Below, one piece after another: positions 14,032-60,808 of a stretch of 64,000 bases of DNA; the first letter of the stretch is position 1, and every line of letters starts with the position of its first letter. Origin of the DNA: Candidatus Bipolaricaulota bacterium (GTDB lineage Bacteria; Bipolaricaulota; Bipolaricaulia; M55B111). Below the pieces are notes generated by a model that was not told the DNA's origin, searched no databases, and saw nothing but the letters and a program-made list of their open reading frames with translations. The translations under genes and the position numbers were made by a program. Location of the stretch: positions 2,610 to 66,609 of the forward strand of contig JAIPHJ010000006.1 of the NCBI GenBank assembly GCA_021735245.1, written 5' to 3'.

Positions 14032-15483
14032 TTATTTGGGTAAGTGAATGTTAAATCGGTCTCTAATTTTTTCGTCGACTTCTTCCGATAGGAGGTTGTC
14101 CTTCGTACTGTCCAGTAGTTTCCTTGCTCGTTTCCTGGCTCGGGCGCGAGTGTCCATTGATCCGTTATTTTCCCAGGTGGTTCTGTCTTCACGATCGACT
14201 ACGCTCGGCTTGTAAAATTCCTCCGACCGGGAGTAATTTACGGTATGTTGCTGGGTAAGAAAGTTATTACCCGGTCCTACCTCTTCGATTACATCCAGGC
14301 CGATCCTATCCTCGTCCACCTCGATTCCCCGGAGAACTCTCAGAGCCATTCCAATAACGTCGTTGTCGATAACGAACTTTTCGTCGGCTACACAGAGCAT
14401 TGACTCCATCATTCCTGCTGCGTGGTGGATATAGTTACCACCTGCAAGTCCGACCTGAAGCATGTTGAGGGCGGCTTCGGCCCCCGCCTGTGTATCGGGC
14501 AATTTGGAGTCACTCTCTCCTGCGTCGGAATATATTGGGACGTCGATGTGGTCTGCCAGTTGAACTGTCGCGACGTTCATCATCCCCGTCTCAGGTGCCC
14601 CCGCCAGGTAGGCCATGTTCTTCATATTGGCCGCAGCCGGGACGGGTCCGTAGAGAACAGGAGCTCCTTCAGAAAACATCTGGGCTAGAGTAATCCCGAA
14701 CAGCACTTCTGCGTGGACCTGAGCAAGCAGGCCCGATAGAGTTGCGGGAGCTGTAGAGCCGGTGACCGGTGCCGTAGATAGGACAACGGGGAGTTCGTAA
14801 TCGGTTATTCTTCTGAGAACTTTTGTAGTTTCCGTATCCAATTTTAACGGGCTTACCATCCAGCTGGTTACGAATGAAATGAAGGGTCGGGCAAGAAATT
14901 CCTCCCTGGAGCCGGCTATTATCGCCCCCATATTTACTATTTCATCAACCTTTTCCGGTCTGGTCACCGATTCCTGAACGTTCTTGAAAGTTCCGGTAAG
15001 GCTTGCGTAGATACTGTTCAGACTCAGGTCCTCCTCGGGCACGTCGGTTGGCACCACGGGAGTTTGAAAGAAGTGAACGTTTTCCAGCTTCTCGACTAGT
15101 CGTGCCAGTCTTGCCTGATCCTCAAGAGTTGGGGGCCGGACCTCCTCGGAATTCAGGTCCAGTATTTTTACAGCCGCTCCCCCCGTCCCGTAGTGAACTT
15201 TTCTGTCCTCAAGGTTTAGGTCGTATTCTTCCTTTCTTCCGTGCAGGGTTACCTTAGACGGGGCAAGTTCGAGGTAATCTCTAACTACCTCCGGTGGCAG
15301 CTTTGCTCGTCCGTTCTTATGGTTGACCCGGGCACCGTTACTATCGAGAATTTCGAGAAATTCGTCCGAATCGACCTTTACACCTACTTTTTTTAACAGT
15401 TTTAAAGCGGATTCGTGGATTAAATCCACCTCGTCATCGCTCAATAATTTAAATTTATCGCCCACTAATCCTGCGTACTTCAT
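14032..15483 (-). CDS. MttB-superfamily methyltransferase, non-pyrrolysine type (second, divergent paralogue)
   Basis: 483 aa. LLSDDEVDLIHESALKLLKKVGVKVDSDEFLEILDSNGARVN..AKLPPEVVRDYLELAP. Full length with no internal TAG. Confidence 0.85.
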   Translation of the reverse strand: MKYAGLVGDKFKLLSDDEVDLIHESALKLLKKVGVKVDSDEFLEILDSNGARVNHKNGRAKLPPEVVRDYLELAPSKVTLHGRKEEYDLNLEDRKVHYGTGGAAVKILDLNSEEVRPPTLEDQARLARLVEKLENVHFFQTPVVPTDVPEEDLSLNSIYASLTGTFKNVQESVTRPEKVDEIVNMGAIIAGSREEFLARPFISFVTSWMVSPLKLDTETTKVLRRITDYELPVVLSTAPVTGSTAPATLSGLLAQVHAEVLFGITLAQMFSEGAPVLYGPVPAAANMKNMAYLAGAPETGMMNVATVQLADHIDVPIYSDAGESDSKLPDTQAGAEAALNMLQVGLAGGNYIHHAAGMMESMLCVADEKFVIDNDVIGMALRVLRGIEVDEDRIGLDVIEEVGPGNNFLTQQHTVNYSRSEEFYKPSVVDREDRTTWENNGSMDTRARARKRARKLLDSTKDNLLSEEVDEKIRDRFNIHLPK

Positions 15484-22631: not shown

Positions 22632-22660
22632 ATAATATACCACTTTGGGGTGAGTGTCAA
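22632..22660 (-). promoter_or_regulatory. Sigma70-like promoter of the GntR-headed cluster
   Basis: Minus strand reads TTGACA (22660-22655), a 17-nt spacer, then TATTAT (22637-22632). Confidence 0.55.
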
Positions 22661-22673
22661 AGTCTTTGCGATA

Positions 22674-22942
22674 TCACCAAAACTTGCCGAGGAAGCCCCA
22701 CCGCTTGCTGTGGGGAGGAATCGGCTGTTTTTTGTCCTCCAGCACTCAAACGGGAACTGGTTTTCTTTGAGAGGTTCGATTGCTTGTTTTTAGTTAATCA
22801 TTACCTTTAGACTAATCAAGATACCCGGGTCCGTTTGAGTGCTGGAGGATTGACTGCTGGGTCTTCTTTTGTAAAAGAACAAAGTCCGTAGTTAAACCTG
22901 TTTTTCTACAAGCCCCGTCCCTTGGGGCGTGGTTCTTGACTT
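22674..22942. repeat. Family-A structured intergenic repeat, copy 1 (269 bp)
   Basis: Shares with 56057-56441 the left end TCACCAAAACTTGCCGAGgAAG-CCCC..GGGG-AgGAAT. It also shares a ~140-bp near-identical core with an 18-bp perfect inverted repeat (22736-22753 / 22831-22848, CCTCCAGCACTCAAACGG), and a right-end hairpin followed by TTGACT (22936-22941). Confidence 0.85.
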
Positions 22943-23631: not shown

Positions 23632-23708
23632 TGGTGCGCCCGGGAGGATTCGAACCCCCGACCTACGGATCCGCAATCCGTCGCTCTCATCCACTGAGCT
23701 ACGGGCGC
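23632..23708 (-). tRNA. tRNA-Arg, anticodon GCG, CCA encoded
   Basis: The reverse complement folds by hand as GCGCCCG TA GCTC AGTGGATGA GAGC G ACGGA TTGCGGA TCCGT AGGTC GGGGG TTCGAAT CCTCC CGGGCGC A CCA. All four stems pair, with one G.U in the T stem. Confidence 0.9.
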
Positions 23709-23799
23709 TTGATTTCTCGATTCTGAGCTACCGCCCTCGACCATGAACCCGGAAAATCACTAGATTATCGATTTCTCGAGTCGACGGCTAGAGTTCCAA

Positions 23800-24639
23800 A
23801 TGAAGTCGTCTAATCCGTCGTACTCTTTCAACCAAGAAGATGGTACAAAGTTAACCAGAAATGATCAACCGGATGAAAGTGTGGAGGTTGCCGAAGCAAT
23901 TGATCGTTTTTTAAGTGACAAGAGGTTGCAGGGTCTATCAGATAGGACTCTGGACCAGTACGAAGAAGTACTGGGGTGGTTTCATGGTTTTCTGGATGAT
24001 GGAGACGTCTTAATTGACGAAGTTACTGAGGTAACTGTTAAAAAGTACCTGAACGGATTGATATACCGTGGGCTAAAGATCACCACGGTGGCTATCAGAT
24101 TCAGGGTCTTACGCTCTTTCTTCAATTGGACTGAGGGCCGGGCGCTGATAGACAGGTCACCCATGGAAGATATGTAGGAACCGAAGACCCCTAAGAAATT
24201 CCCCTATGTGCTTGATGAAGAGGAGGTAGACCAATTACTCGAGACCGCTAAAGGATATACCAATAAGTGGACGGGAATCCGAGACTATACGATGGTACTT
24301 CTCTTACTGGATGCTGGACTACGGGCAACGGAGATACTGGAAGCAAAAAAGGAGAACCTAAACCTAGAACGCCGTTCTCTCAAGATCCACGGCAAAGGAG
24401 CCAAAGACAGAAAAGTATTTTTCGGCACCCAGGCCCGTAAATGGCTAAAGCAGTGGCTGCAGGTAAGAGAGGATATATCCAATCCCGTCGTGGAGAATAT
24501 ACTATTCGTTGATCTAAATGGTAATCAGATAAAGCAACGAAACCTCACCCGGATTATCAACAGGTTACAGAAGAGAGCTGACCTTCCTGTAGTGCAAGCT
24601 ACTCTACTTAACATGTCATACTCGGTTAATTGCAAATAA
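23800..24639 (+). pseudogene. Tyrosine recombinase/integrase, inactivated (in-frame TAG at 24175-24177 and C-terminal truncation)
   Basis: ORFs 23800-24177 (SAM-like N-domain) and 24208-24639 (start of the catalytic domain with GLRATE and HGKGAKDR) are in the same frame, separated only by one TAG. The reading frame ends before the H-x-x-R and catalytic Tyr region. Confidence 0.75.
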
Positions 24640-24972: not shown

Positions 24973-27233
24973 GACACGCAATAGAATGGCCTGATGGGGA
25001 ACGGAAATTACTATCAGTAAATGCCAGCCCCCTGTTCGACGAAGACGGTGGATTTGACGGTATGGTGGCGGTCATTGAAGCCATCACCGAGCAATTTAAA
25101 AATCAAAGGAAGCTCGAAGAGAGCAAAAAACGCTACAAACAACTATTCACCGAAACCAATGAAGGGGGTGCCCTCCACGAGCTCATCTATGACGACGAAG
25201 GCAACCCGATTGATTACACGATTCTCGAAGTAAACTCCAACTTTGAGTCGATAATTGGATTAACTGAAGGCGAGGTCAAAGGTAAAAAGGCAACCGAAGT
25301 CTACGATCGAGAGAAACCTCCTTATCTTGACCGTTACGCAGAGGTAGCAATTAATGGAGAACCGACCAGCTTTGAGACCTACTACGAACCACTAGGCAAG
25401 CATTTCAAGATATCCGTCTTCTCTCCGGAGAAGGATAAGTTTGCTACCGTGTTTACCGATATTACGGAACGAAAAGAAGCTAAAGAGAACTTAAAAGAGA
25501 GCGAGCAGCGTTACAGGAGACTTTTCGAGACCGCCCAGGATGGAATGCTGATCCTGAATGCGGATACCGGCAAGATAATAGATGCCAACCCCTTCATCCG
25601 GAACCTTTTAGGTTTTTCCAAACATGAACTGGTAGGTAAACAGCTCTGGCAAATAGGTAAGTTTCAGGATATTGTAGAAAATAGGGATAAGTTCAAAAAG
25701 CTCGTAGAAGAAGGCTACATTCGTTACGAACACCTGCCACTTAAGACAAAAAGTGGAGAAGAAGCTTCGGTCGAATTCGTTAGTAACACTTACGAGGTGA
25801 ACAGTCAAAAGATAGTCCAATGCAACATCAGGGATGTAACCGAACGCAAAGAAGCCAACGAAAAACTGGAGAAAGCAGTAAAGCAGTTCAGACAGGCCTT
25901 CCAGTTTGCCCCGTATCCCATGATGATCCATGCCGAAGATAGTCAGGTTATCGCTATCAACGATGCGTGGTTGGACATAACAGGTTGCGAAGGAGAAGAT
26001 ATTTCCACCATCTCTGATTGGACTGAAAAGGCCTATGAAGAAGCAAAAAATAATGTTACAGAGCATATCGAAAAGCTATACGAGCTTGAAGAACGGTTCG
26101 ACGAAGGCGAATACGAAATCCGGACAAAGGAAGGAGAGACGAGGGTCTGGGATTTCAGCTCCGCCCCGCTTGGCAAGGCAATAGGGGACGAAAGACGTTT
26201 AGTATTGAGCATGGCCGTTGACGTTACCGCACGAAAAAAGGTAATGTCTGAACTGAAAGAAAAAGAAAAAGAGATGTCCGTACTCTTCAACAACCTGCCC
26301 GGAATGGCCTACAGGTGTGAAAACAACAGGGAATGGACTATGAAGTTCGTTAGTCAGGGGGCCAGAGAGCTAACTGGTTACCATCCGGAAGATCTTATCG
26401 ATAACGCTTTGGTTTCATACGGAGAATTAATTGTTCCCGAAGATAGAGATAAAGTATGGAATGAAGTTCAACAGGCTCTTGATTCTGATCAACCCTTTCA
26501 GTTCGAATACAGGATAGAGACCAAGGAAGGGCAGGAAAAATACGTCTGGGAAAGGGGAAGAGGAGTATACACAGATAAAGGTGAATTGAAAAACCTGCAG
26601 GGTTTTATCAGCGATATAACCGAACGCAAAAATGCCCAAAAAGAACTTCGCCAGTCTTTCATAGAGCTTGCCGAGACCACCTCCAGAGTCTTAGGGGTCC
26701 GGGACCCGTACACCGAACAACACGAACAAAGAGTAGCCGAACTCGCACGGGAAGTTGGTAAAAGGATGGGTTTAGGGGATGACAAACTGCTGGGTCTATA
26801 TATTGGTGGTGTGTTACATGACATAGGGAAGATAGTCGTGCCGGAGACCATCCTGACAAAACCCGGCGAGCTAAAAGATGTCGAATGGCAAATGATAAGA
26901 TCACACCCGGAAGTAGGCTACAACCAGATACTGGAAGACACCGACTTCCCATGGCCCGTTGCCGAGATGACGCTCCACCACCACGAACGACTGGACGGTT
27001 CGGGTTATCCGGATGGACTGGAAGAAAATGAACTAACCACCGAAGTCAGGATACTCGGAGCGGTTGACGTGCTAGAAGCGATGAGCACCAGAAGGCCTTA
27101 CAGGGCAGCCAGAACGAAAGAGGAGACCCTTGAAGAGATAAAGAAGGGCAAAGAAGATAAGTACGATCCTAAAGTGGTTGACATACTTACCCAAATGATA
27201 GAAGAGGGAGAGATTCAGTTTGGAGGAAAGTAA
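24924..27233 (+). CDS. Multi-PAS sensor with C-terminal HD-GYP domain (c-di-GMP phosphodiesterase type)
   Basis: 769 aa. Several PAS repeats each end in DITERK/DVTERK. The C-terminal HD-GYP has HDIGKI and HHHERLDGSGYPDGL. The true N-terminus is probably at 24697 (see the previous feature). Confidence 0.85.
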   Translation: MPFEIVKRTEEPVYDVRHAIEWPDGERKLLSVNASPLFDEDGGFDGMVAVIEAITEQFKNQRKLEESKKRYKQLFTETNEGGALHELIYDDEGNPIDYTILEVNSNFESIIGLTEGEVKGKKATEVYDREKPPYLDRYAEVAINGEPTSFETYYEPLGKHFKISVFSPEKDKFATVFTDITERKEAKENLKESEQRYRRLFETAQDGMLILNADTGKIIDANPFIRNLLGFSKHELVGKQLWQIGKFQDIVENRDKFKKLVEEGYIRYEHLPLKTKSGEEASVEFVSNTYEVNSQKIVQCNIRDVTERKEANEKLEKAVKQFRQAFQFAPYPMMIHAEDSQVIAINDAWLDITGCEGEDISTISDWTEKAYEEAKNNVTEHIEKLYELEERFDEGEYEIRTKEGETRVWDFSSAPLGKAIGDERRLVLSMAVDVTARKKVMSELKEKEKEMSVLFNNLPGMAYRCENNREWTMKFVSQGARELTGYHPEDLIDNALVSYGELIVPEDRDKVWNEVQQALDSDQPFQFEYRIETKEGQEKYVWERGRGVYTDKGELKNLQGFISDITERKNAQKELRQSFIELAETTSRVLGVRDPYTEQHEQRVAELAREVGKRMGLGDDKLLGLYIGGVLHDIGKIVVPETILTKPGELKDVEWQMIRSHPEVGYNQILEDTDFPWPVAEMTLHHHERLDGSGYPDGLEENELTTEVRILGAVDVLEAMSTRRPYRAARTKEETLEEIKKGKEDKYDPKVVDILTQMIEEGEIQFGGK

Positions 27234-27235
27234 CG

Positions 27236-30097
27236 ATGGAGTTTACTGACCGTAACTGTCAGGAGTTTATGGAACAGCTACCGGAAGCGGTGTTCCTCGA
27301 GACACTGGAGGGAGATATACTCGACGTCAACAAAGAGGCCTGCGAGCTTCTGGGCTACAGCAAAGAAGAGCTGATCAACCTCGATGTTGAAGATCTGGAA
27401 CCGGAAGATGCCCCAATATTCCTCCCCGATCAAGTTGACGAGGCCACCCGCTCAGGGGAACCACTAAAAACGACTAAAATTAAAAAAGACGGAACAGAAG
27501 TACCTGTAGAGTTGAAGGGCAAAATTCTTGAGATCGAGGGCCAAAAGAGAGTTCTGGTAACCGTCAGGGATATTTCAGAACGGGTGGAGGCAAACGAAGA
27601 ACTCAGAAGAAACAAAGAAAGGTACCAGAGTTACTTCGAAGAACTGGGAGATGCGGTCTTTATAACCAAAGCAGGCGGCGAAGATCATAGCCGGATCCTC
27701 GACGCAAACACGGCAGCGGAAGACCAGACCGGTTACTCCGAGGAAGAACTTATCGGGATGAATTTGCTGGAAAACATCACGGCAGGAGAGCCGCTCGAAA
27801 TGGATTACGAAGAAGCGGACCAAAAACTCTCCCAGGGTGAAACGATAAGTTACACCGAGAAGAAGAGGCGAAAGGGTGGCACTGAATACTGGACCGAGGT
27901 GGTTGTAACCCCTATTGAACACGAAGGTGAGCGGGCAAACCTTTCCATCAACAGGGACATAACTGAACGGATGCAGGTAAAAGACCGGCTCGAACAGTAC
28001 AAAATGGCCGTGCAAGGTTCGGACGATTTAATAGCTACCTGCGACGAAGACTATAACTATATCTTTGCAAACCCGGCCTACAGAAGCTATTACGAAGTAG
28101 GGGAAAAGGAGATACGTAACTATAAATTAGGGGACTTGATCAGCGACCCTGCCTTTGAAAATGAGGTCAAGCCTCGGGTGGACAGGTGCCTGCAGGGTGA
28201 GAGGATAGACTACGAGATGGAACGTACTCATCCTACAAAAGGACCGAGGCAACTAAGGATAATGTACTATCCCCTCAAAAGTGAAGAGGGAATACACGGT
28301 GTAGTAGCGGTCATGAGAGATGTCACGGAAGTAAAAGAGATCGAGAAACAACTTGAAGAAACAAACGAGAGGCTCAGACAGAGCAGGGAAAGGTACAAGC
28401 GTTACTTCGATGAGCTTGGGGATGCAGTATTTATAACCAAAGTTGGCGAAGAAGATCACGGCTCCATTCTGGACGCAAACTCGGCCGCAGAAGACCAGAC
28501 AGGCTACCCCCTAAATGAATTGATCGGAATGAATATCGCAGATGACTTTACGGTGGGCAGGCCGGAGGAGTTAAGTTATGAAGAAATCGATGATAAATTG
28601 TCAAAAGGGGAGACAGTAAGCTTTACCGAAAAGAAGAGAAGAAAAGACGGAAATATCTACTGGACAGAAGTAATGGTCACTCTGATCGAGCACGAAGGAG
28701 ATCCCGCCACGCTTTCCATAAACAGGGATATTACCGAACGTAAGAGAACTGAACAAAAGCTAAAGCAAAGTCAGGAAAGACTACAGCTAGCCCTTGAAGG
28801 AACCGAAGCGGGAATATGGGACTGGAACTTTCAGACAGGGGAAGTAGTCTTTAATGAAAAGTGGGCTGAAATCATCGGCTATACGCTAGAAGAGCTCCAT
28901 CCTGTTACTATGGAAACGTGGGAGGAATTAGCTCATCCTGAGGATCTTAAGCGTTCGGAGGAGCTTCTGGAGAAACACGTTGACGGTGAAACCGAGGTTT
29001 ACGAGTGCGAAGTCCGGGTGAAGCACAAGAACGGGGACTGGATCTGGGTACTGACTCGGGGCAGAGTCGTGGATTGGGACGAGCAAGGGGAGCCGATCCG
29101 AATGGTGGGAACTCATCAGGTTATAACCGAAAGGAAGAAAGTGGAACAGGAGTTAAACGAGGAGCGGGATAAATTAAGACATCTCCATGATGCAGTGGAT
29201 CAGCTGCAACAGCAAAATGACGAAGAAAGTATCCTCCAGACTGCAGTCGAAGTTTCCGAAAGTATCCTAGATTTCGAACTCTGTGCTATCGACCTGATCG
29301 AAGGTGAATATCTCGAAACAAAAGCCATCTCCTCAGGCCTAAGCATTGACCAAACCAGTAAATATAAAATAGGAGAAGGAATTGGTGGATTAACAGCCGA
29401 GCGGGGTGAAACTATCTGGGAAGACGATTTAAGAGAACACCCTGAAGCCAAACCCACGAATAAAGAATTCCGGGCCATTATCAGCGTACCTATTGGTGAG
29501 GTCGGTGTTTTTCAGGTAGTTTCCAAGGAGGTGGGAAGTTTCGACAAAGAGGACGTGGAACTTGCCGAGATCTTATCCAATCACTTGCGGGAGGAAATAA
29601 GTCGAGTCCGTTTAGAAGAAGACCTGCGCCAGCAGGCAATACACGACCCCCTTACCGGGCTTTACAATAGAAGACATTTCAACATAACCCTCGATAAAGA
29701 AGTGGAAAGGTGTGCACGATACGGTCACAACTTGGCCTTCATAATGATTGACGTCAACCGATTTAAGGAAATAAATGATCGTTACTCCCACCAGACGGGG
29801 GATGAAGTGCTCCAGGAGGTCGCAGAACTGCTGCAAGCCAACGTAAGGGATGCAGATACCGTAGTCAGGTACGGTGGCGACGAGTTCCTGATTATGATGC
29901 CCGAGACCAATGGCGAGGCAGATACCACGGTAAAGCGACTCAGGAACAAGATTAAGGAGTGGAACGATGAATCCGATTTGCTGGACTTCCCCCTGACTCT
30001 GGCAATGGGAATATCTCACTGGAGCCCTGAAGAAGATATAGATGTGGAAGCGGCGCTTAAGAAATCGGACATAAATATGTACGGAGACAAGGGTTGA
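27236..30097 (+). CDS. Multi-PAS / GAF / GGDEF diguanylate cyclase
   Basis: 953 aa. PAS repeats, a GAF-like region, and a GGDEF domain with DPLTGLYNRRHF and RYGGDEFLIMMPE. The ATG lies 2 nt after the HD-GYP stop, with GGAGGAAAG inside the upstream gene's end. Confidence 0.9.
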   Translation: MEFTDRNCQEFMEQLPEAVFLETLEGDILDVNKEACELLGYSKEELINLDVEDLEPEDAPIFLPDQVDEATRSGEPLKTTKIKKDGTEVPVELKGKILEIEGQKRVLVTVRDISERVEANEELRRNKERYQSYFEELGDAVFITKAGGEDHSRILDANTAAEDQTGYSEEELIGMNLLENITAGEPLEMDYEEADQKLSQGETISYTEKKRRKGGTEYWTEVVVTPIEHEGERANLSINRDITERMQVKDRLEQYKMAVQGSDDLIATCDEDYNYIFANPAYRSYYEVGEKEIRNYKLGDLISDPAFENEVKPRVDRCLQGERIDYEMERTHPTKGPRQLRIMYYPLKSEEGIHGVVAVMRDVTEVKEIEKQLEETNERLRQSRERYKRYFDELGDAVFITKVGEEDHGSILDANSAAEDQTGYPLNELIGMNIADDFTVGRPEELSYEEIDDKLSKGETVSFTEKKRRKDGNIYWTEVMVTLIEHEGDPATLSINRDITERKRTEQKLKQSQERLQLALEGTEAGIWDWNFQTGEVVFNEKWAEIIGYTLEELHPVTMETWEELAHPEDLKRSEELLEKHVDGETEVYECEVRVKHKNGDWIWVLTRGRVVDWDEQGEPIRMVGTHQVITERKKVEQELNEERDKLRHLHDAVDQLQQQNDEESILQTAVEVSESILDFELCAIDLIEGEYLETKAISSGLSIDQTSKYKIGEGIGGLTAERGETIWEDDLREHPEAKPTNKEFRAIISVPIGEVGVFQVVSKEVGSFDKEDVELAEILSNHLREEISRVRLEEDLRQQAIHDPLTGLYNRRHFNITLDKEVERCARYGHNLAFIMIDVNRFKEINDRYSHQTGDEVLQEVAELLQANVRDADTVVRYGGDEFLIMMPETNGEADTTVKRLRNKIKEWNDESDLLDFPLTLAMGISHWSPEEDIDVEAALKKSDINMYGDKG

Positions 30098-39444: not shown

Positions 39445-39522
39445 TCACCAAAACTTGCCGAGGAAGCCCCAGGGCGACCCCCGGGGAGGAATTGTCCGGG
39501 TGCGGGGTTGTAGTTATTGACT
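39445..39522. repeat. Family-A repeat, copy 2 (78-bp mini version lacking the inverted-repeat core)
   Basis: TCACCAAAACTTGCCGAGGAAG-CCCCAGGGCGACCCCCGGGG-AGGAATTGTCCGG..TTGACT. It fills the korB / malic-enzyme spacer, and its TTGACT overlaps the last codons of korB. Confidence 0.75.
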
Positions 39523-51021: not shown

Positions 51022-51261
51022 TTTACCACCCTCTATACCTCGATTTGTCCTCTTGATTTCTTTTTAAGATAGTATCGGTCCGAAGATTCTCGTTCCATGA
51101 TCAAAATCAACCAGTAAGCTGATTAAACTCAATTTAGACCGCGAGCACGAATTGCTTTTATTGACTTACGGAGAATACCCCGTACTCTGGACGGAGATGA
51201 GTTCGGAAATTCGTATTTAAATTGAAATCGAGGCGGCAAAGCCATGAATCGGGCGTAATTT

Positions 51262-51289
51262 CCCGCCCGGAAGGGCGGGGTAGTTGACT
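51262..51289. repeat. Solo right-end module of the family-A repeat (GGAA-loop hairpin + TTGACT)
   Basis: CCCGCCC-GGAA-GGGCGGG-gtag-TTGACT matches 56414-56440 (CCGCCC-GGAA-GGGCGG-agaaa-TTGACT). Confidence 0.6.
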
Positions 51290-56056: not shown

Positions 56057-56441
56057 TCACCAAAACTTGCCGAGTAAGCCCCGGGGAACCCCACTGCTGG
56101 GTGTAGGGGTCCCCAAAGTCGAGGACGCTGGAAGTGGCTTCGGCCAGGTCTACGAAGGATTTACGGAGGGTTTACCAATACTAGCTGAGAACCCCCAGGG
56201 CACCCCCTGGGGATGAATCAGCTGGTTTTTGGTCCTCCAGCACTCAAACGGGAACTGGTTTTCTTTGAGAGGTTCGATTGCTTGGTTTTAGTTAATCATT
56301 ACCTTTAGACTAATCAAGATACCCAGGTCCGTTTGAGTGCTGGAGGATTGACTGCTGGGTCTCGTGTTTTTGAAGTACTTAGCTGTTAGTTATAAAGGGG
56401 TTTTCTACATACCCCGCCCGGAAGGGCGGAGAAATTGACTG
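56057..56441. repeat. Family-A structured intergenic repeat, copy 3 (385 bp, expanded)
   Basis: It has the same ends and the same 18-bp inverted repeat core (56234-56251 / 56329-56346) as copy 1. A ~130-nt multi-hairpin insertion sits inside the CCCC..GGGG stem, including GGC-TTCG-GCC and CCCCAGGG-cacc-CCCTGGGG. Right-end hairpin CCGCCC-GGAA-GGGCGG (56414-29) + TTGACT (56435-40). Confidence 0.85.
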
Positions 56442-59272: not shown

Positions 59273-59287
59273 CTATATCAACCAAAC

Positions 59288-59323
59288 GCCCGGGCACGGG
59301 GACCCGGGCTGCTATTCTTTTTT
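59288..59323 (+). repeat. Family-B GC-rich hairpin repeat, copy A
   Basis: GCCCGGG-cacgggga-CCCGGGC-TGCTATTCTTTTTT. The core is shared with 60775-60808 and (inverted) 37950-37977. Confidence 0.75.
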
Positions 59324-60497: not shown

Positions 60498-60774
60498 CTT
60501 GGTCTCCTTGTGTGATTTAAAACACCTATTTTTCGCAAATTAGAATCCTAACTGTCCAACACCTAATTATACGATAAAGGGCGATAGATAGCTTGTAGAA
60601 AGAATTTAACGCTAAAGCAACAACTGGAAGGTGAGGAATTGTTGTTTGTGCAAGTTATCGCCTCGGCACGAGGACCGAGACTGCTTTGTGATTTAAGTTC
60701 CGGGTTGCTAAGTTCGTTTAAAATTAGCTTTCCGTAGGTCCATGCGCTCAGTATACTGGAAATCCAAACCAATC

Positions 60775-60808
60775 GTCCGGGCGCGGGGACCCGGGCTGCT
60801 ATATTTTT
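60775..60808 (+). repeat. Family-B GC-rich hairpin repeat, copy B
   Basis: GTCCGGG-cgcgggga-CCCGGGC-TGCTATATTTTT. The stem is kept by a T.G pair where copy A has C-G. Confidence 0.75.

Follow-up and report, generated by a model that had tools for sequence, protein, structure and literature searches.

Anatomy of the flagged repeat and of family A

The window analysed in this report is a stretch of 64,000 nucleotides (nt) from a Candidatus Bipolaricaulota bacterium (contig JAIPHJ010000006.1, positions 2,610 to 66,609 of the forward strand). Three repeat units starting with TCACCAAAACTTGCCGAG[G/T]AAGCCCC are found in it, at 22674 (copy 1), 39445 (copy 2) and 56057 (copy 3), compared with no match of the left-end pattern (up to three mismatches) in 100 shuffles. 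All window copies occupy gaps between minus-strand genes. The units belong to a repeat family, designated family A, which probably consists of non-coding mobile elements. Copy 3 had been flagged in a preliminary description, made from the sequence of the window, as a variant with a multi-hairpin expansion inside a conserved stem. Its parts are listed below; other loci are denoted by L numbers.

56057..56440, + strand: copy 3, the whole repeat unit, from TCAC through the element to the conserved T that follows the right cleavage site (sequence)
56057..56060, + strand: TCAC, putative left cleavage and target tetranucleotide C_L, flank and not element in the IS608 model (TCxC predicted from guide GAAG)
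56061..56078, + strand: outer canonical left end CAAAACTTGCCGAG and guide TAAG at 56075-78 (pattern match)
56079..56171, + strand: ~93 nt of multi-hairpin DNA unique to copy 3, with GGGGaaCCCC and GGCttcgGCC (comparison with other loci; minimum free energy fold)
56172..56192, + strand: inner variant left end, TTAC followed by CAATACTAGCTGAGAAC (in full TTACCAATACTAGCTGAGAAC), of the L' sub-family as in L006 and L009 (profile hit)
56193..56212, + strand: H1, left subterminal hairpin CCCCAGGG-CACC-CCCTGGGG (hairpin type common to 10 other copies; co-variation)
56213..56233, + strand: 3' half of the left arm, ATGAATCAGCTGGTTTTTGGT (complementary to the inner left end: TCAGCT/AGCTGA, TTGGT/ACCAA)
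56234..56346, + strand: H2, long hairpin with 18-bp stems 56234-51 and 56329-46 (two substitutions compared with copy 1)
56347..56411, + strand: right module up to the right guide (right-module profile hit 56350-56439, E 7e-7)
56412..56431, + strand: H4, right subterminal hairpin CCCCGCCC-GGAA-GGGCGGAG (sequence; co-variation)
56436..56439, + strand: TGAC, putative right cleavage tetranucleotide C_R, 4 nt past the foot of H4 (IS608 rule)

The left end (TCACCAAAACTTGCCGAGTAAG, 56057-56078), the 18-bp inverted repeat (CCTCCAGCACTCAAACGG with CCGTTTGAGTGCTGGAGG) and the right-end hairpin with TTGACT are all present in copy 3, as described before. Directly after H4 follows AAATTGACT, and the unit ends at 56440 with a T at the conserved position +1 after C_R. 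The near-identity to copy 1 is likewise real, with two substitutions, and concerns the ~130-nt core of H2 rather than ~140 bp; the end modules are far more diverged.

The small hairpins GGGG-aa-CCCC (56083-92) and GGC-TTCG-GCC (56136-45) are located in the stretch that is found only in copy 3. In the minimum free energy fold, TCGGC (56140-44) of the latter is able to pair with the outer GCCGA (56069-73). The stretch had no homologue among the family loci collected at the time of comparison. The third hairpin that had been assigned to the expansion, CCCCAGGG-cacc-CCCTGGGG, is present as well, but it is the ordinary H1 hairpin of family A and no part of an insertion. The extra DNA measures ~114 nt instead of the ~130 nt given earlier. 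It lies 5' of an intact arm that has its own left end, and therefore it is not inside the conserved CCCC..GGGG stem of H1. The stem of this inner arm is AGCTGA/TCAGCT, in which compensatory changes have replaced the usual GCCGA/TCGGC.

A profile of the left module matches copy 3 twice, at 56057-93 (E 2e-11) and at 56174-231 (E 1e-12). Copy 3 thus contains the left-end module twice in a row: first a canonical left end with ~93 nt, and then what appears to be a complete element of a sister sub-family. The outer part was also considered as a complete degenerate element. This was rejected, as the right-module profile finds just 8 nt there.

Inspection of further genomes showed that the repeat is widespread. 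An exact-match scan with one genome per species placed the left end at 54 loci in 13 species-level bins, and a metagenome scan added 26 contigs; the repeat is real. The carrier bins are labelled Bipolaricaulota or mislabelled Thermotogae, and one 2-kb contig is binned as Hadarchaeota. Several of the bins are named for hypersaline sites, for example Great Salt Lake. Up to 18 left-end matches are present within one fragmentary bin, and many matches are at contig ends. Viral contigs scanned for the left end gave no match.

Compared side by side, the units have sharp ends and unrelated flanks. Their length ranges from 51 nt, with just a left end, one hairpin and a right tail, up to 384 nt. Neither of the two ends (TCACCAAAAC... 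and ...TTGACT) is an inverted copy of the other, and no bases are repeated in the flanks; accordingly, neither inverted termini nor a target duplication were seen in this comparison of ends and flanks. The left half of the plan comprises TCAC, CAAAACTTGCCGAG-GAAG, H1 and AGGAATCGGCTGGTTTTTG; pairing of AGGAATCGGCTGGTTTTTG with the left end yields a three-part arm. The middle is the long hairpin H2, with stems of 15-20 bp and several sequence types. In the right half, a right module of ~60 nt that ends in CTACAAG is followed by H4, a 4-nt spacer and TGAC, with T next to it. Altogether, ~90 nt form a conserved right module that ends exactly at the cleavage site.

The modules of the body (left arm, H2, right module) appear to have been reshuffled, inverted, deleted or duplicated between copies. 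Minimal units of 51-59 nt with a single hairpin are found in L005, L028, L047, L085 and L036. H2 is absent in some copies, and a second H2-like hairpin is located between the left end and H1 in L007, L025 and L027. Some copies carry the inner part of H2 in one orientation, others in the opposite one (after inversion, L004 and L010 are 99% identical, L089 and L075 97%). H2-type repeats were not found outside of family-A copies: 9/9 apparent solo matches lie in or beside family-A sequence, mostly in copies with diverged or missing left ends.

Some loci show further rearrangements. L069 (354-~1170) holds a tail-to-tail fusion of two copies at the right hairpin and thus a long, perfect-looking palindrome similar to REPINs. 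L077 and L093 have the left flank and the element in common and differ in the right flank, which suggests recombination between copies or an assembly chimera. L008 and L048 are from two species, their flanks are 72% identical and the same gap holds different element sub-types.

The preliminary description had stated that the stems co-vary, and an alignment of the copies bears this out. In 30 distinct left arms 96% of the H1 positions are paired, with both sides changed in 4/8 pairs; the variants include CCCCAGGG, CCCCACAG and CCCTGCAG. Controls in which the H1 alignment was slid are only 36-55% paired. For H4 (18 distinct right hairpins) the values are 95% and 3/8 pairs. Both hairpins are of the same type, CCCC-N4-CTTG-N4'-GGGG with AAG in front, and in L038 they are identical to each other. 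Compared with shuffles, the folds of copy 3 and copy 1 have z-scores of -6.2 and -5.4, respectively. The plus strand folds more stably than the minus strand in 36 of 46 distinct complete copies and has 193 internal G-U pairs compared with 131 on the minus strand, in both cases counted on copies that are not independent.

Family-A copies are oriented ~2:1 antisense to the neighbouring genes, which speaks against a role inside the transcripts of these genes. Rfam 15 contains no family that matches the repeats at its gathering score; with E up to 5, only generic long-hairpin matches far below threshold were obtained. An internal promoter noticed by eye (TTGACT-16-TAAAAG) was dropped, as the promoter scanner did not call it.

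Guide and cleavage tetranucleotides

In IS608, the TnpA transposase binds a subterminal hairpin at each end, and the four guide bases that precede each hairpin on its 5' side recognise the cleavage tetranucleotides (PMC3201880, PMC5934647). According to the passages cited, TTAC is located 19 nt 5' of the left hairpin and outside of the insertion sequence (IS), and TCAA is located 10 nt 3' of the right hairpin (PMC3201880). Position C-4 of the tetranucleotide pairs with guide base 2 and C-3 with guide base 1, whereas A-2 does not pair with the guide and is bonded to T-4 instead, and an A of the guide is inserted into the protein (PMC3201880, PMC5934647). From both ends of IS608 in these passages (AAAG/TTAC, GAAT/TCAA) we infer that C-1 pairs with guide base 4. 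For ISDra2, pairing of target position +1 with a guide A has been described.

In family A, TCxC is expected from the left guide GAAG, and the tetranucleotide found 18 nt 5' of H1 is TCAC. For the right guide CAAG the expectation is TGxC; here TGAC is found, its last base lying 8 nt beyond H4. T at -4, A at -2 and A at guide position 3 are common to the two ends, which differ precisely at the pairing positions (G:C at the left end, C:G at the right). The boundary tetranucleotides of family A thus follow the pairing rule of IS608.

The first guide base is G in 70/77 distinct left ends and the first boundary base is T in 74/77; the other bases of these two left-end motifs, AAG and CAC, had been set by the search pattern. 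Of 32 right ends, 27 have the guide CAAG, with TGAC prescribed by the regular expression. TCAC always precedes CAAAAC, its CAC again being set by the pattern. The base after TGAC is T in 48/52 copies. This preference would fit a pairing of target position +1 with a guide A, as described for ISDra2. From the fit of guides and cleavage sites it follows that the element proper would be CAAAAC...TGAC and the target TCAC^T.

A profile search with left arms retrieved diverged copies in which guide and boundary have matched alternatives, namely TTAC/AAAG in L069 and L003 and TTAC/AATG in L006 and L009. The same search retrieved some copies with single guide mismatches, which look like decay.

Copy 3 has mismatches at all three sets of guide and cleavage site. 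In the outer guide the first base of the family motif GAAG is changed from G to T, and the resulting TAAG does not match C_L (TCAC) at position -3. The inner guide is damaged (GAAC and not AATG, facing TTAC). On the right, CATA (56408-11) stands in place of CAAG and faces TGAC. Since each of the three guides mismatches its cleavage site, copy 3 is probably a decayed, rearranged composite and an immobile relic. Contigs of the window's own sample break inside copy 3. Its orthologous site was not recovered in relatives, where homologues of the gene next to it are too distant (<=76%).

Insertion sites and other features of the window

The other family-A copies of the window and a related element are located as follows.

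22674..22941, + strand: copy 1, intact by the guide rule (TCAC/GAAG, CAAG/TGAC); element proper 22678-22940, 263 nt (sequence)
39445..39522, + strand: copy 2, deletion derivative consisting of left end, H1, H4 remnant and TGAC with the following T (sequence)
51168..51289, + strand: related element without canonical left end, ending in CCCGCCC-GGAA-GGGCGGG and GTAGTTGACT (right-end-like piece at 51262)

At the site of copy 1, the spacer between the CRP and GntR genes measures 393 nt in the window and 129 nt in the relatives L095-L099, whose GntR proteins are 91-92% identical. The difference of 264 nt compares with an element of 263 nt. Homology between the occupied and the unoccupied site runs to ~20 nt from the left end and resumes ~30-40 nt past the right end. 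The GntR gene has a near-consensus sigma-70-type promoter (TTGACA-17-TATTAT, 22632-22660, minus strand), which is also conserved in the relatives. It lies outside copy 1, close by the left end, and the insertion is immediately upstream of this promoter.

Copy 2 fills the spacer between korB and the malic enzyme gene and has lost its right hairpin. In the relatives L058-L068 (94, 93 and 85% identity) this spacer does not contain the copy. The coding sequence of korB ends within the right tail of copy 2 (TTATTGACT, 39514-39522), which supplies its last two codons and its stop codon. In the window the protein terminates in SQ*, in the relatives in GK*; the insertion has thus rewritten the end of korB.

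The copy in L026 is nearly identical to copy 1 and has flanks without similarity to the window. Family A therefore behaves as a mobile element: near-identical copies are dispersed, and copies are present or absent at orthologous sites. The preliminary description had proposed a check for presence or absence, and both the copy-1 and the copy-2 site are unoccupied in relatives. Look-ups of the exact proteins of the genes flanking the window copies retrieved the window's own sample only, with contigs broken in the element.

The element at 51168-51289 consists of an H1-like hairpin, ATGAxT and a family-A-like right hairpin with TTGACT. It is 81% identical to a stretch in L039 (2152-2252).

A second hairpin repeat family, unrelated to family A, consists of CCCGGGCACGGGGACCCGGG followed by CTGCTATTCTTTT and is present at 59280-59321, 60652-60693 and 60767-60808, with similar units in L094 and L039. 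At 25452-28761 there are seven 41-nt units, 61-80% identical to the reference copy and ~360-960 nt apart. They lie mostly within one open reading frame (ORF) of ~970 amino acids and look like repeated protein domains of a sensor protein rather than a DNA repeat. A match to Rfam PYLIS_3, the mttB pyrrolysine insertion sequence, is found at 14418-14517 on the minus strand (39.4 bits, gathering score 38). As the match starts with GAG instead of UAG, this is probably a non-pyrrolysine gene of the MttB family and not a recoding signal.

A tyrosine-recombinase gene at 23632-24639 is split into two ORFs, is truncated at the C-terminus and adjoins tRNA-Arg (GCG). It looks like the relic of an integrated element. 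The gene is ~860 nt from copy 1; in other loci there is no consistent linkage of such genes with family A.

Mode of spread and significance

Family A is most likely composed of non-coding, non-autonomous mobile elements of the IS200/IS605 type, similar to palindrome-associated transposable elements (PATEs) and moved in trans by a Y1 transposase (probability roughly 0.75). Its anatomy, the co-variation of its hairpins, the fit to the pairing rule, its copy number and its presence or absence at one orthologous site are direct observations; the enzyme and the single-stranded pathway are deduced from the sequence code. In the proposed mechanism, the plus strand would fold into a subterminal hairpin at each end, and a Y1 (HUH) TnpA supplied in trans would bind both. 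The guides GAAG and CAAG would pair with TCAC of the left flank and TGAC of the right tip, respectively. Excision of the element would release a single-stranded circle, which would then insert 3' of another TCAC, with a preference for TCAC^T and no target duplication.

Family A shares with IS608 and ISDra2 the asymmetric ends without inverted termini or target duplication, the subterminal hairpins on the same strand, a right cleavage site a few nucleotides 3' of the right hairpin and a preference at target position +1. In the IS608 passages used above, the left cleavage site is 19 nt 5' of the left hairpin, compared with 18 nt in family A, and the register in which guide and tetranucleotide pair is the same, as are the T at -4, the A at -2 and the A of guide position 3. 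The right spacing, on the other hand, is 8 nt in family A and 10 nt in these passages. The targets also differ (TCAC(T) in family A, TTAC in IS608, TTGAT in ISDra2). Unlike both elements, family A has no tnpA or tnpB between its ends in ~100 copies, and its body is a set of large modular hairpins.

PATEs are non-autonomous derivatives of IS200/IS605 or IS1341-type elements that have been described in haloarchaea and other prokaryotes. Like family A, they are short, non-coding, intergenic and present in multiple copies, with IS200/IS605-like ends that contain palindromes, and they occur in halophiles. Family A differs from them in sequence and in phylum (Bipolaricaulota), and by its extreme module shuffling, with sizes of 51-384 nt and a central hairpin in either orientation. 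It is thus a new sequence family of a known kind of element. We know of no parental IS with ends that match it.

Several observations weigh against this assignment. A search that covered the window and ~100 loci (~0.7 Mb of Bipolaricaulota sequence) found neither a TnpA/Y1 HUH transposase nor a TnpB-like ORF with a C-terminal zinc ribbon. The probes for TnpA were an IS200 TnpA sequence, used with phmmer, and a scan for the motif HUH...YxxxQ, which gave zero matches. A single weak phmmer match was rejected as an off-frame artefact inside dnaN. None of the ~100 copies contains an ORF between its ends, and no autonomous IS with the same ends is present among the ~100 loci. Clustering of ORFs across the loci returned only ABC ATPases and ordinary tyrosine recombinases as recurrent neighbours, without consistent linkage.

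Furthermore, no clean empty TCAC^T site was obtained. The ancestral target at the copy-1 site cannot be read, as the junction in the relatives is too diverged, and reconstructed empty sites are absent from all collected family-locus sequence. The invariance of CAC and AAG at the left end is partly due to ascertainment by the search pattern. With 8-bp stems that are near-perfect and a CTTG loop, the end hairpins differ from those of IS608, which are imperfect palindromes with an extrahelical T. An excess of G-T over A-C pairs is seen in H4 (18 and 3) but not in H1 (3 and 7). According to our own derivation, lagging-strand targeting as in IS608 would predict the opposite of the ~2:1 antisense bias if genes are co-oriented with replication. 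In the window the GC skew follows the coding strand and carries no information on the direction of replication.

The preliminary description had left a choice between structured RNAs and transposon ends recognised as single-stranded DNA. The guide rule and the asymmetric ends favour the latter, as do the co-varying subterminal hairpins, the lack of inverted termini and of a target duplication, and the unoccupied copy-1 site of relatives. If family A consisted of structured RNAs, that is small RNA genes or cis-acting stabilisers, terminators or leaders, with copy 3 as a variant carrying an expansion segment, the co-varying hairpins, the stability of the folds relative to shuffles and the better folding of the plus strand would be readily explained. 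So would the intergenic location of all copies, often in operon-like gaps such as the one between korB and the malic enzyme gene; H4 followed by TTCTT is weakly terminator-like. This explanation is nevertheless improbable. Rfam has no matching family even when E is raised to 5, the repeats are found in both orientations relative to their neighbours, and the strand that folds better mostly lies antisense to the genes on either side. The flanks contain no conserved promoter and the promoter scan found none inside the element. Whole modules are missing, inverted or duplicated in units of such different size, contigs break inside the element, it is absent at orthologous sites of close relatives, and the match between boundary tetranucleotides and guides is left unexplained.

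REP/BIME (with RAYT), pneumococcal BOX and enterobacterial ERIC repeats are intergenic, abundant and hairpin-forming and have mosaic modules, as in family A. REPs consist of a GTAG tetranucleotide and a palindrome (~35 nt), usually in inverted pairs that flank the RAYT gene; their guide-like tetranucleotide beside the hairpin is read by a Y1 enzyme and is comparable to the guides of family A. A host-kept repeat of this kind, whose spread would depend on a domesticated RAYT (TnpA-REP) or on recombination and gene conversion and not on an IS that transposes, would account for the minimal single-hairpin units with conserved flanks, the tail-to-tail dimer of L069 and the different sub-types in one gap of L008 and L048. 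It would also suit the modular make-up, in which H2 is near-identical in copies 1 and 3 while the ends have diverged, and the lack of an autonomous partner. However, the left and right ends of family A are distinct and have a separate pair of guide and cleavage site each, which is the layout of IS200/IS605. A RAYT gene was not seen in the ~0.7 Mb of loci, where it was searched by the TnpA probes only. Spread as a host-kept repeat is therefore unlikely; mechanistically it overlaps with transposition by a Y1 enzyme, as the enzyme superfamily is the same. Very improbable is a miniature inverted-repeat transposable element (MITE) of another class (DDE transposase, IS91 or IS110), or a nest of MITEs with H2 as an independent inverted-repeat element. 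H2 does have terminal inverted repeats of 15-20 bp, both orientations and a second position between left end and H1, but the whole unit lacks inverted termini and target duplication, no duplication flanks H2, and the diverse flanks are unlike the specific targets of IS110. H2 as an independent MITE was rejected, since no solo copy of its inverted repeats exists among the loci examined.

Assignment to the IS200/IS605-type elements leaves room for a far more speculative proposal, which we regard as a long shot. The family might spread in at least a dozen Bipolaricaulota species without a cognate IS. Its ~90-nt right module might be a stand-alone scaffold for an omega-RNA-like guide or have another hairpin-dependent function that is used by the host or by a TnpB/IscB-type nuclease. 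The inversion of H2 might reflect a hairpin-primed replicative step and not simple recombination.

To our knowledge, Bipolaricaulota had no cultured representative until very recently. For this candidate phylum, the analysis provides a sequence-level account of an abundant repeat, with its boundaries, its likely target TCAC^T and a distinction of intact from dead copies, and it explains where assemblies of these genomes break. The flagged copy would be a rearranged relic and not a new RNA. For annotation, such elements can rewrite the ends of genes, as the stop codon that copy 2 supplies to korB illustrates. More generally, the guide and cleavage code of IS608 can be read straight from the consensus sequences of repeats, and orphan hairpin repeats for which no transposase is at hand may thereby still be assigned to a single-strand transposition pathway.

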